Made by a program: the position numbers and the translations under genes
The notes under the pieces: model-generated
Database searches by the model: none
Seen by the model: only the letters and a program-made list of their open reading frames with translations
What the model was told of the DNA's origin: nothing
Part shown: positions 36,619 through 39,490 of the stretch, piece by piece
Position numbering within the stretch: the stretch's first letter is position 1
Layout: every line of letters starts with the position of its first letter
DNA from: an uncultured Candidatus Saccharibacteria bacterium
Lineage (GTDB): Bacteria; Patescibacteriota; Saccharimonadia; Saccharimonadales; AWTP1-31
DNA: 64,000 bases
Direction of reading: 5' to 3'
Assembly (NCBI GenBank): GCA_964615565.1
Contig: CAZTPC010000003.1
Span: 68 to 64,067 of the forward strand

Positions 36619-39490
36619 CTAGTTTACCTGGGACAAAGATTTCTTTCTTGATTTCTTTTCCATCCAGGAAAGTAGCTACATGTTCATCCGACTTGGCAGC
36701 CGTAATAGCGTCTTCTTTACTAATGTCAGCTGCCACTTGCAGCTGAGCGCGTACCTTGCCGTTTACTTGGACTACAAGGGTAATTGTTTCATCAATCAGG
36801 TATTGATCTTCCCAAACTGGCCAGTGGTCTCGGTGGATTGAATCACTGTGACCCATCTGCTGCCATAGCTCATCGCTAATGTGCGGCGCGAATGGTGCAA
36901 TCATCATAGTTACGAACTCGAGAGCCTGCTTCCATGCGTCTGAAGTACCAAACGGTAACTCAGTCTTAGCTAGGTAGAGCTTGTTTACGGCCTCCATACT
37001 TGCAGCAATAGCAGTATTGAAGCGGTTCTCTTCGATGTCTTCGGTAACCTTTCGAGCAGCTTTGTGGACAATTCCAAGCAGTTGCTTGGTTTGTGAATTT
37101 GATAGCTCTACAGGCTCGGACTCGTTGTATTCTTGGGTAATATTCCAAAGTCGTGACAAGAATCGGTGAGCACCAGGTACACCTTGTTCATCCCATCGGG
37201 CACCAAACTCTAGTGGAGCGGCAAACATTAGGTAAGTGCGTAATGCATCAGCACCGTAACCCTGCTCGATAATCTTGAGAGGGTCCGGACCGTTACCTAA
37301 AGTCTTACTAAAAGCGCTACCGTCCGCTGCGGTGACCTTACCGTTGTATAGCATTTGCTTAAACGGTTCTGGATTATTAAGTAAACCAATCTTAGTAAAG
37401 AAGCGGGTGAGGAAGCGAGCGTAGAGCAAGTGAGCAGTGGCGTGATCGGCGCCGTTATAGAAGTCGACAGCCATCCACTTATTTGCTATCTCTGTGTCGA
37501 AAACTTTTGAAGAGTCGTGAGGCGCTAAGTAACGTAGCATATACCACGCACTATCTACATAGGTATCCATGGTGTCGGTTTCTCTTTCGGCTGGGCCATC
37601 ACAATTCGGACAAGTAGTCACTAACCAGTCTTTGGCTCGCGCTAAAGCACTACGACCATCACCACTTGGCTTAAAGTCGACCAGTTCCGGGAGAACTACT
37701 GGCAGATGTTCCTCGCCAAGCACAACCGGGCCACAATCAGGGCAGTTAACTACAGGGATTGGAGCTCCCCAGTAACGCTGACGACTGATACTCCAGTCGC
37801 GCATGCGATAGTTAATACGAACCGTAGCCAACTTCTTTTTTTCTAGATCGGCGACTATTTTCTCGCGTGCATCCGAGGTGCTCATGCGATTGTATTCACC
37901 CGATTCAATGAGTCGTCCTTCGCCACCATAGACGTAATCGCCTTCATTTACCCATTTAACGATATACTCAAGACCGCCTACGGGGCCAAGCTTGGCTAGA
38001 TCCTGTTTATCCACCCAGACAAGCTCGAAATCTTCGTGTGATTCACGCTTAGTATCGACAGTTTTGTCAGACTTTAGTTCGAACTGCAGTACATCAACAC
38101 GAATGTCGCGGTTCACGTCTTTGTGGGCGGCATAGAATACTGAATTAAGTGCAAACGGCATACGGCCAGTGAATTCTAGATCTACCAGTCCGGTTTCTTC
38201 ACGGATTTCACGAAGTGCAGCGTCGACAAGGTCTTCACCCTCGTCGATACCACCCATTACCAAAGTCTGCCAATCGTGTTTGCGCCATTTAAGCGTAGCG
38301 TATTTACCTTCTTTATTCTTAATCACGCAGATAGCGGTGTTGCGTTCGGTGTTCTTCTTGCCTTCCTTCGGCGGATTGTCATCATCAAAAGTGTAGGCCT
38401 CGACAACTTCGATAATAGGCAGTTCAAACTTCTTGGCGAACTGAAAGTCACGATCATCATGACCAGGTACAGCCATGATGGCACCCGTGCCGTATCCGGA
38501 TAGGACATAGTCAGCAATATAGATAGGAATTTCCTCGTTATTTACGGGGTTAATCGCGTAGGAGCCAATAAATACACCGGTCTTCTCTTTACTTGCCTGG
38601 CGCTCAACTTCGGTTTTTTTGGCAGTTTCTTTAACATAAGCCTCAACTTCATCCTTTTTGTCAGCTGCAGATAACTCTTTAACAAGAGAGTGGTCTGGAG
38701 CTAAGACCATGAAAGTAACGCCAAACAAGGTGTCTGGCCGAGTAGTAAACACTGTAAGCGATTCTTTAGATCCCTTAATTGCAAATTGCACTTCGGCGCC
38801 CTGGCTGCGGCCGATCCAGTTCTTCTGAGCTAACTTGACACTCTCAGTCCAGTCAAGCTCGTCGGTTGCCTCGAGTAATTCGTCTGCGTAATCTGTAATT
38901 TTGAAGAACCACTGTTTGACTTCTTTCTTCTCTACCTGCAGGTCATCTTTACCGTCATGACGCCAGCATTTGCCATCGATAACTTGCTCGTTTGCGAGTA
39001 CTGTCTGACATTTGGTACACCACCACTGCCAGCGACTATCTTGATAAGCAAGCCCATTCTCATGCATCTTGGTAAAGATCCACTGCGTCCATTTGTAGTA
39101 CTCTGGCTCACAGGTATTGATCTCTTTCTTCCAGTCGTCACTCCAACCCATGGCGCGGTATTTTATACGGTAGTCGGGGATAAGAACCCCCATACTCTCC
39201 TGGGGAGAAACACCGGCCTTGATGGCATAGTTTTCTGCTGGCAACCCAAATGAGTCCCAACCAACTGGATGATAGGCTTCGTAACCTTGTTGTCGCTTAA
39301 ATCGTGACTTAATATCACTGATTGTAAAGTTCATGGCATGCCCAACGTGCAAGTTGCCACTTGGGTAGTTAAACATCCCAAAAGCAAGATGTTTTGGCTT
39401 ATCGCTAGTAAGATCGGCCGTATAGACGTCTGTCTCTTGCCATATCTTTTGCCACTTTGGTTCAATCTCTTTTGGGTTATAGCGCTTCAT
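36602..39490 (-). CDS. leuS: Leucyl-tRNA synthetase carrying an inserted Nudix domain
   Basis: HIGH reads as HVGH. The CP1 editing motifs TTRPDTLFG and [15 protein letters not shown] are present, along with [19 protein letters not shown] and the Zn knuckles. The KMSKS region reads AFSKTLGN. At 962 aa it is about 100-150 aa longer than usual. Confidence 0.95.
   Translation of the reverse strand: [962 protein letters not shown]
37931..38398 (-). other. In-frame Nudix-hydrolase domain inserted in LeuRS (aa ~365-520; Nudix box 38186-38254)
   Basis: [23 protein letters not shown] satisfies Gx5Ex7REUxEExGU exactly. It is flanked by the LeuRS segments [11 protein letters not shown] and [14 protein letters not shown]. 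Confidence 0.8.

Follow-up and report, generated by a model that had tools for sequence, protein, structure and literature searches.

Few enzymes are as conserved as the aminoacyl-tRNA synthetases (aaRSs), and the study of their accessory domains has disclosed new biology time and again. Several described systems bear on the case presented here. Firstly, isoleucyl-tRNA synthetases (IleRSs) of the family NF040702 (ileS_w_GNAT) carry an N-acetyltransferase domain. Secondly, aaRSs are the main source of diadenosine tetraphosphate (Ap4A), which RppH and Nudix enzymes degrade (PMC10148737). Thirdly, CP1, the inserted editing domain, was classed as an 'insertion-only' module in a 2026 survey, with zero cases of PF13603 as a host (PMC13114784). 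Here we describe leuS, the leucyl-tRNA synthetase (LeuRS) gene of an uncultured Candidatus Saccharibacteria bacterium (assembly GCA_964615565.1, contig CAZTPC010000003.1, positions 68-64,067 of the forward strand; this stretch of 64,000 nucleotides is the window, and positions below refer to it). A Nudix hydrolase domain is nested in the CP1 domain of the encoded enzyme, and in all likelihood it forms a cassette that is swapped between near-identical leuS alleles. A second catalytic domain inside the proofreading domain of LeuRS is unusual, and strain-level polymorphism in an essential single-copy gene is rare for core translation genes.

The nested Nudix domain

The leuS open reading frame (ORF) is, as the initial annotation held, continuous over 962 aa and flanked on both sides of the insert by genuine LeuRS sequence. 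The NCBIfam model TIGR00396 (leuS_bact) scored 931.4 bits (cut-off 548.4) in three stretches split by the insert, Pfam detected tRNA-synt_1, PF13603, NUDIX (PF00293) and Anticodon_1, and base composition showed no break across the Nudix insert. The gene is the housekeeping LeuRS of a Saccharibacteria-like bacterium of the Patescibacteria, or candidate phyla radiation (CPR).

When aligned with Thermus thermophilus LeuRS (1h3n), residues 1-365 correspond to Thermus residues 1-364 and residues 521-721 to Thermus residues 377-579, so that some 155 aa, the length first estimated, stand in place of a 12-aa loop. The initial annotation had set this segment (37931-38398, or leuS aa 365-520) after CP1, and here it requires correction. 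The PF13603 match (aa 223-372, E=3.5e-65) ends at profile position 148 of 185, and in the insert-less relative P0011 the same profile continues through the insertion site (positions 1-184 of 185). Together with the Thermus 364/377 breakpoint, this places the Nudix domain within CP1 and not behind it; the editing domain of the Thermus enzyme spans residues ~224-417. The nesting has three levels, because the Nudix domain occupies a surface loop of CP1, which in turn interrupts the Rossmann fold.

The profile PF00293 matches aa 383-500 with 52.2 bits (E=8.1e-14, cut-off 21.1), and the Nudix box proved as letter-perfect as first claimed (Table 1), with E428, E431 and E432 as the predicted metal-binding residues. 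AlphaFold2 modelled the insert, with 33 homologues, at a mean predicted local distance difference test (pLDDT) score of 92.3 and a predicted template modelling (TM) score of 0.85, with strands and helices in the order typical of Nudix proteins and in the alpha/beta/alpha sandwich of that superfamily. In the full-length model (pLDDT 87.6, predicted TM score 0.73), which superposes on the T. thermophilus and E. coli LeuRS-tRNA complexes at TM scores of 0.84-0.85, the insert retains a pLDDT of 90-95. A Foldseek search of the insert against the PDB gave 532 matches at E<=0.001, the best 50 of which are all Nudix-family structures. Among these 50, the top folds are E. coli RppH, YfaO/NudI and Ap4A/Ap6A hydrolases (TM ~0.65-0.70, ~19% identity); the nearest solved folds include, among the matches listed, CT771, the lupin and human Ap4A hydrolases and Ndx1. 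A complete in-frame Nudix domain with its catalytic Glu residues, as originally reported, is thus upheld by profile, model and structural matches alike.

The prominence of RppH brings an RNA-directed enzyme to mind, for which LeuRS would serve as an RNA-binding platform while an RppH-like Nudix removes 5' pyrophosphate or Np4/NAD-type caps, or processes the tRNA-Leu end. E. coli RppH structures, RNA-bound forms included, are the top Foldseek matches, the weak NCBIfam matches of the insert are all to RppH models, and some LeuRS also contain an inserted ASCH domain, which has an RNA-binding fold. We nonetheless regard such a role as very unlikely. Identity is only ~19%, the best RppH model (NF001938) reached just 30.3-30.9 bits against a cut-off of 116, and the stand-alone Nudix gene of the nearby nusB-nudix-rnc operon is, by context, the better RppH candidate. 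In addition, the 5' end of a mature tRNA is a monophosphate. The MutT models TIGR00586 and PRK10776 were not among the insert's matches at E<=0.01, and mycobacterial MutT1 scored only 15 bits. Judged by its sequence, the insert is a Nudix hydrolase outside any described subfamily.

Conservation was counted over 244 copies of the clade to which the insert belongs, a clade composed of divergent types (that of the window being type A) that share only ~25% identity. Despite this divergence between types, E428 is found in 242, E431 in 239 and E432 in all 244 copies, and the Glu triad is complete in 237. A second set of residues is specific to the clade, namely K457 (240/244), N460 (226/244), R461 (205/244) and W492 (237/244), giving the signature [FY][YF]xxHKxxNR ... 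W; K457 and W492 are also invariant in the alignment of 33 homologues. Within one type, the insert has diverged no more than the LeuRS core: the window protein shares 93% of its insert and 82% of its core with P0006, and 70% and 59%, respectively, with P0044. Conserved triad and conserved insert together argue for a working active site and against a degenerate Nudix domain, and we consider the domain very probably active. ApnA hydrolases reportedly carry an aromatic Tyr ~16-18 aa downstream of the Nudix box, a rule attributed to Dunn et al. 1999. In the insert, Y453 sits 18 aa past L435; at this alignment position, 138 of the 244 copies have Y, 82 have F and 16 have C.

The host enzyme was compared with its 120 closest LeuRS (59-91% identity), which derive from Candidatus Saccharibacteria, Saccharimonadales and Nomurabacteria. 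All 120 share the xFSK[ST] variant of the KMSKS motif, which in the window enzyme retains its Lys and falls in a poorly modelled stretch (pLDDT <50 at aa 728-732 of the full-length model); the part of CP1 that follows the insert is modelled at ~91. The leucine-specific domain is absent, with aa 721-726 spanning Thermus residues 579-637. It is likewise lacking in all 120 relatives; the LeuRS of E. coli and Thermus do have the domain, but it is neither universal nor defining for the LeuRS family. Both active sites, the synthetic one (HVGH, xFSK[ST]) and the editing one (T-rich segment, GTG...HDxRD), look intact, and the window LeuRS should therefore still charge and proofread tRNA-Leu.

Distribution in LeuRS and other hosts

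A survey of LeuRS orthologues found the insert to be widespread in Patescibacteria. Among the 120 closest LeuRS, 90 carry a Nudix domain at the CP1 site, two carry an unrelated module of ~120 aa and 28 have only a linker of 4-36 aa; the 36-aa linker, that of P0011, consists of remnants of a type-A insert, and in relatives without the insert 4-25 aa fill the site. When one genome per GTDB species was scanned, at least 328 species-level genomes held a confirmed relative of the Nudix insert. In almost all of the 80 loci kept from these, the Nudix domain lies in the LeuRS frame at the same site; the gene at L070 is free-standing. The fusion is carried by Saccharibacteria, Berkelbacteria, Paceibacterota, Levyibacteriota, Nomura-, Kaiser-, Uhr-, Niyogi-, Peri- and Absconditabacteria, among others. 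The nested Nudix domain is thus a lineage-wide trait of Patescibacteria LeuRS and not the oddity of one genome. An assembly chimera can likewise be dismissed: an identical protein is on record, a 91%-identical one with the same type-A insert occurs on four independent contigs, and the architecture recurs in hundreds of independent assemblies.

Two groups of loci merit separate mention. In L055, L056 and L058, labelled Peribacteria/Absconditabacterales, the leuS frame is fragmented under translation table 11, as expected if UGA is a sense codon there. Contigs of low GC content (27-33%) from metagenome-assembled genomes (L027, L029, L038, L040, L042-L045, L048 and L050) hold the same nested Nudix domain without synteny with the window. 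These genomes are labelled Bacilli, Erysipelotrichaceae, Tenericutes or Clostridia; either the domain has spread past Patescibacteria or the bins are mislabelled.

Databases already tag LeuRS-Nudix proteins automatically with PF00293. The clade as such is small: a phmmer search with the insert against 1.84 billion representative proteins returned just 441 matches at E<=1e-3, and 104 of the best 150 of these have LeuRS flanks. Many of these 150 contain two to three Nudix copies, at the present CP1 site and at a second site before CP1, and different Nudix types are combined in such multi-copy enzymes. One of the best 150 (P0252) is an archaeal-type prolyl-tRNA synthetase (ProRS), with the Nudix domain between its anticodon-binding and C-terminal domains. 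Its relatives are from Nanoarchaeota/Woesearchaeota, with the insert in five of the top 120; the small group of DPANN ProRS holding the clade comprises P0252, P0279-P0282 and locus L087.

Genuine free-standing members of the clade, of ~160 aa, also exist. One lies 2 bp upstream of a leuS (P0134), another two genes upstream of the ProRS-Nudix gene of L087 (P0142) and a third (P0183) in one gene string with metG, TatD, a YfbR-like HD nucleotidase, another Nudix and leuS; the remaining two adjoin an Fpg gene (P0169) and another Nudix gene (P0178). Three of these five are therefore near aaRS genes. At L092, where leuS has no insert, the Nudix gene immediately preceding it was considered as a split fusion and rejected: it is a generic Nudix that scores 27.7 bits against the hidden Markov model of the clade. 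As it falls outside the clade, it lends no Rosetta-stone support to the fusion; clade member P0183 does, however, lie 2.4 kb upstream in the same string. We regard the inserts as a distinct clade, the members of which are almost all embedded in aaRS genes or adjacent to them. Being common in Patescibacteria and recurring in DPANN ProRS, it suggests a specific link between one Nudix clade and aminoacylation in ultra-small symbionts.

LeuRS also hosts other guests. The unrelated ~120-aa module occurs in two LeuRS of 932-936 aa (P0024 and P0090), has no Pfam match and lies exactly at the CP1 site of the Nudix domain, which marks this site as a general insertion hot spot. Paceibacterota LeuRS of 1330 aa (P0195/P0274) combine the CP1 Nudix with a full Ham1/ITPase domain (PF01725, 197 bits) that separates the catalytic domain from the anticodon-binding domain; in NCBI the entire protein is called 'RdgB/HAM1 family non-canonical purine NTP pyrophosphatase'. 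An ASCH domain is found near the start of CP1 in P0092 and P0118 (1080-1089 aa), and a 729-aa LeuRS fragment (P0127) has an alpha/beta (Ser) hydrolase between its Nudix copies and CP1.

Such guests may indicate that the Nudix domain is a parked housekeeping enzyme: a sanitiser similar to MutT or a nucleoside triphosphate (NTP) pyrophosphatase, without relation to LeuRS, fused into a permissive loop of an essential and constitutive gene in the streamlined genomes of CPR bacteria and DPANN archaea. Related LeuRS host Ham1/ITPase, ASCH and alpha/beta-hydrolase domains, free-standing clade members occur near Fpg or with TatD, the HD nucleotidase and another Nudix, and the insert is dispensable for LeuRS, as P0011 and the 28 insert-less relatives attest. 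We nevertheless find this explanation doubtful. The clade is mostly embedded in aaRSs (104 LeuRS and one ProRS in the best 150 of 441 matches), it has been captured independently at two sites of LeuRS and in a class II ProRS, and the majority of the free-standing genes examined lie near aaRS genes.

Exchange of the cassette

Over 4186 pairs, identity in the LeuRS core showed no correlation with identity in the insert (r=0.08), and at least nine divergent insert types form a mosaic over the LeuRS tree. For example, the cores of P0113 and P0121 are 97% identical and their inserts 33%, while for P0010 and P0013 the values are 96% and 25%; P0040, P0051 and P0068, with cores mutually 96% identical, have inserts at 18-24%. 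The same discontinuity is seen in DNA. L081 is the closest syntenic relative to carry another cassette. Its leuS matches that of the window at 67-87% along the gene (73-87% in most 150-nt windows), but at only 43-55% over gene nucleotides 1051-1650. Three syntenic loci from independent samples (L084, L085 and L086; gene order tyrS-PBP-leuS-x-nusB-nudix-rnc) have leuS genes that are 88-96% identical save for ~600 nt at 39-55%, and their shared flanking genes are ~81-98% identical, with a few 200-nt windows at ~71%. P0011 (81% core identity) has kept N- and C-terminal remnants of type A and has lost the Nudix core. These patterns point with high probability to a hypervariable cassette that is swapped between near-identical leuS alleles and can be lost. 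A parked housekeeping enzyme would not be expected to behave in this way, that is, for paralogues of ~20% identity to replace each other between strains with 96% identical LeuRS.

The exchange presumably proceeds by homologous recombination via the conserved flanks (...LPIIxVV / GEGxLxNSG...). This is the simplest route; the insert boundaries show no direct repeats, no meaningful inverted repeats and no mobile-element features. A mobile or intein-like element was also rejected, as a Pfam scan of the window LeuRS found no endonuclease or intein domains. Natural competence has been reported for Saccharibacteria (PMC10187176) and would provide a route for the exchange of leuS alleles. The polymorphism itself suggests intense recombination, or else selection of a balancing or diversifying kind.

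Another reading is that the cassette would serve in conflict or immunity, shielding LeuRS, tRNA-Leu or translation from nucleotide-based attack, with the types reflecting an arms race. Candidate attacks are adenylate-mimic inhibitors of LeuRS, toxin-made changes of the tRNA 3' end (pyrophosphorylation) and phage nucleotide signals. At least three types occur within species in syntenic loci that are otherwise 88-98% identical, the types are distributed as a mosaic and are combined in multi-copy LeuRS, and the reported natural competence would allow alleles to be exchanged. The module moreover sits in CP1, the domain that binds the CCA end of tRNA. Conversely, no PADLOC model matched (zero families for the insert and both neighbouring ORFs), PHROG matches were to generic Nudix only, and neither a toxin gene nor a partner gene accompanies the cassette consistently, the small ORF beside leuS having no type-correlated pattern. 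The catalytic core and the clade residues are, in addition, strictly conserved across types, suggesting one shared chemistry and not a diversification of targets. We consider it quite unlikely, on balance, that the insert is such a 'guard': a horizontally exchanged, diversifying cassette, the types of which would hydrolyse different nucleotide weapons at the tRNA-3'-end-binding domain, the candidate targets being adenylate-mimic inhibitors of LeuRS, pyrophosphate or nucleotidyl groups that toxins attach to the CCA end of tRNA, and nucleotide signals from phage or host. Were it true, the swapping in CPR bacteria and DPANN archaea would record an arms race at the aminoacylation step, and a new class of immunity function would reside within a core translation enzyme.

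Proposed function

From the architecture, fold, conservation, distribution and cassette exchange described above, we infer what we can of catalysis, substrate and coupling to LeuRS. The account that we favour, with a confidence somewhat better than even, is that the nested Nudix domain is an autonomous, catalytically competent and exchangeable pyrophosphohydrolase module in an intact LeuRS. The module would fold independently while tethered to LeuRS, and would act autonomously as a Mg2+-dependent pyrophosphohydrolase via E428, E431 and E432, taking no part in amino-acid editing.

Assigning a substrate is more difficult, and no single one can be put forward other than tentatively. Dinucleoside polyphosphates (Ap4A/Ap3A), by-products of aminoacyl-adenylate and ATP, are our first choice and a possible one: aaRSs make ApnA, RppH-type Nudix enzymes degrade it, the nearest folds are those of such enzymes and the clade is tied to two aaRSs. 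Aberrant (oxidised or deaminated) purine NTPs, the hydrolysis of which would sanitise the nucleotide pool, are somewhat less probable. RNA or tRNA ends, and equally a nucleotide-type toxin or inhibitor, are unlikely substrates.

Several observations weigh against the account that we favour, and in part against a coupling to LeuRS specifically. LeuRS has been counted among the 'low' producers of Ap4A (Goerlich 1982, cited by PMC10148737). The structural matches are generic (~19% identity, TM ~0.65) and the scores with RppH models far below cut-off. The loss of the Nudix core in P0011, together with the 28 insert-less close relatives, indicates that LeuRS does not need the domain. Finally, related LeuRS hold the unrelated Ham1/ITPase, ASCH, alpha/beta-hydrolase and 120-aa guests, and some free-standing members lie beside Fpg, TatD or the YfbR-like HD nucleotidase. 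Such guests and such repair and nucleotide neighbours fit a parked housekeeping enzyme and a coupled one alike, and the associations with Ham1, Fpg, TatD and HD nucleotidase speak just as much for the sanitation of aberrant nucleotides. The roles suggested in the initial annotation, local clearance of Ap4A or adenylates on the one hand and a parked housekeeping enzyme on the other, are both compatible with the present evidence. Neither hydrolysis of ApnA nor sanitation explains the strain-level hypervariability, which keeps a role in conflict or immunity alive.

As a soluble domain of ~160 aa with free-standing homologues, the module offers a way into two questions, namely which nucleotide chemistry is coupled to aaRSs, and how organisms living on scavenged nucleotides deal with Ap4A or aberrant ones. 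The finding matters in practice as well, since phylogenetic trees and alignments that use leuS as a marker can be distorted by its mosaic central part.

Genomic context

The features of leuS and of its neighbourhood are collected in Table 1. The stand-alone Nudix gene downstream of leuS was from the outset described as distinct from the insert. This holds, since the two share the Nudix box alone, and an origin of the insert as a copy of this neighbour was rejected because only the 27-aa box region aligns. The stand-alone protein has a 60-aa low-complexity N-terminal extension rich in Ser, Asn and Pro, and by context it is a candidate RppH-like enzyme; in many Saccharibacteria loci leuS is followed, at a distance of 1-2 kb, by the same conserved nusB-nudix-rnc string.

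Table 1. Features of the leuS locus, with positions in the 64,000-nt window.
Feature	Coordinates	Strand	Basis
Stand-alone Nudix, 203 aa, in nusB-nudix-rnc string downstream of leuS	34662..35273	-	PF00293, E=6.7e-18
166-aa ORF convergent with leuS	36118-36618	+	no family match
leuS, complete leucyl-tRNA synthetase	36602..39490	-	962 aa + stop; ORF list; TIGR00396
Anticodon-binding and C-terminal tRNA-binding domains, aa 801-962	36605..37090	-	PF08264 at aa 802-925; aligns with Thermus 637-876
Catalytic domain, C-terminal half, aa 561-800	37091..37810	-	alignment to Thermus LeuRS
KMSKS loop, AFSKT, aa 726-730	37301-37315	-	Lys kept
CP1 part b and return to catalytic core, aa 521-560, [16 protein letters not shown]...YRMRDW	37811..37930	-	aligns with Thermus 377 onward
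Recombination/variable tract, ~aa 351-550	37841..38440	-	drop in DNA identity between close relatives
Nested Nudix hydrolase domain, aa 366-520, insert type A	37931..38395	-	PF00293; AlphaFold2; Foldseek
Clade-specific motif HKDVNR, aa 456-461, after aromatic pair F452-Y453	38108..38125	-	conservation in 244 copies
Nudix box, [23 protein letters not shown], aa 413-435	38186..38254	-	exact regular-expression match to Gx5Ex7REUxEExGU
CP1 editing domain part a, aa 223-365	38396..38824	-	PF13603 profile positions 1-148 of 185; aligns with Thermus 224-364
GTG...HDDRD editing segment, [15 protein letters not shown], aa 334-348	38447-38491	-	motif located
T-rich editing segment, TTRPDT, aa 249-254	38729-38746	-	motif located
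Rossmann catalytic domain, N-terminal half, and ZN1 region, aa 1-222	38825..39490	-	PF00133 at aa 12-219
HIGH motif, HVGH, aa 48-51	39338-39349	-	motif located in LeuRS
255-aa ORF between ddl and leuS	39511-40278	-	no Pfam/NCBIfam match; faint endolysin PHROG match; conserved in L081

The position of the 166-aa ORF is, in related strains, a second hypervariable island, occupied by small proteins that have a hydrophobic segment and are unrelated or only partly related to one another. This variable ORF was tried as a type-linked partner of the cassette and rejected, its similarity being uncorrelated with insert type. The 255-aa ORF contains SKHMAGVAFD, an SxHxxGxAxD-like motif reminiscent of VanY/M15 peptidases. 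Between the corresponding ddl-adjacent ORF and leuS, L081 has two extra genes; a 232-aa protein encoded at 4270-4968 of that locus has a winged-helix-like N-terminal region and a weak Nudix match.

Comparison with known systems

The window enzyme resembles the LeuRS of T. thermophilus (1h3n/2bte) and E. coli (4aq7) in fold (TM 0.84-0.85, 34-38% identity, with 38% to 2bte), in its HIGH motif, in a CP1 domain with T-rich region and catalytic Asp, and in its anticodon-binding and C-terminal domains. It differs in having a 155-aa Nudix domain for a 12-aa loop of CP1, in lacking the leucine-specific domain and in having AFSKT for KMSKS. The insert, in turn, has the same alpha/beta/alpha fold and complete Nudix box as RppH/NudH, CT771, the lupin enzyme, human NUDT2 and Aquifex aq_158. 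However, it is only ~19% identical to RppH and the Nudix Ap4A hydrolases, has a signature of its own and is embedded in an aaRS, while those enzymes are free-standing.

With ileS_w_GNAT the window LeuRS has in common that a class Ia synthetase carries a second, unrelated catalytic domain, but both the host enzyme and the guest fold are different. To our knowledge, no cassette polymorphism has been described for that family. In the axis of LysRS, Ap4A and Nudix (NUDT2/RppH) or ApaH, a synthetase likewise makes ApnA, which the hydrolase degrades (PMC10148737), and by analogy the LeuRS-Nudix fusion could represent such a synthetase/Nudix pair in cis; there, however, the partners are separate proteins, and LeuRS is a weak producer of Ap4A. 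As in the survey of PMC13114784, CP1 is here inserted in the Rossmann fold, yet it also serves as a host, to the Nudix domain and, in relatives, to ASCH.

The initial annotation knew of no aaRS with an embedded Nudix domain, and we too found no description of one in open-access full texts, a review of aaRS diversification included, although absence there is not proof. The LeuRS-Nudix architecture has apparently been visible in databases yet uninterpreted. What is new relative to all of these systems is a Nudix cassette in LeuRS that is polymorphic at the strain level and exchangeable.

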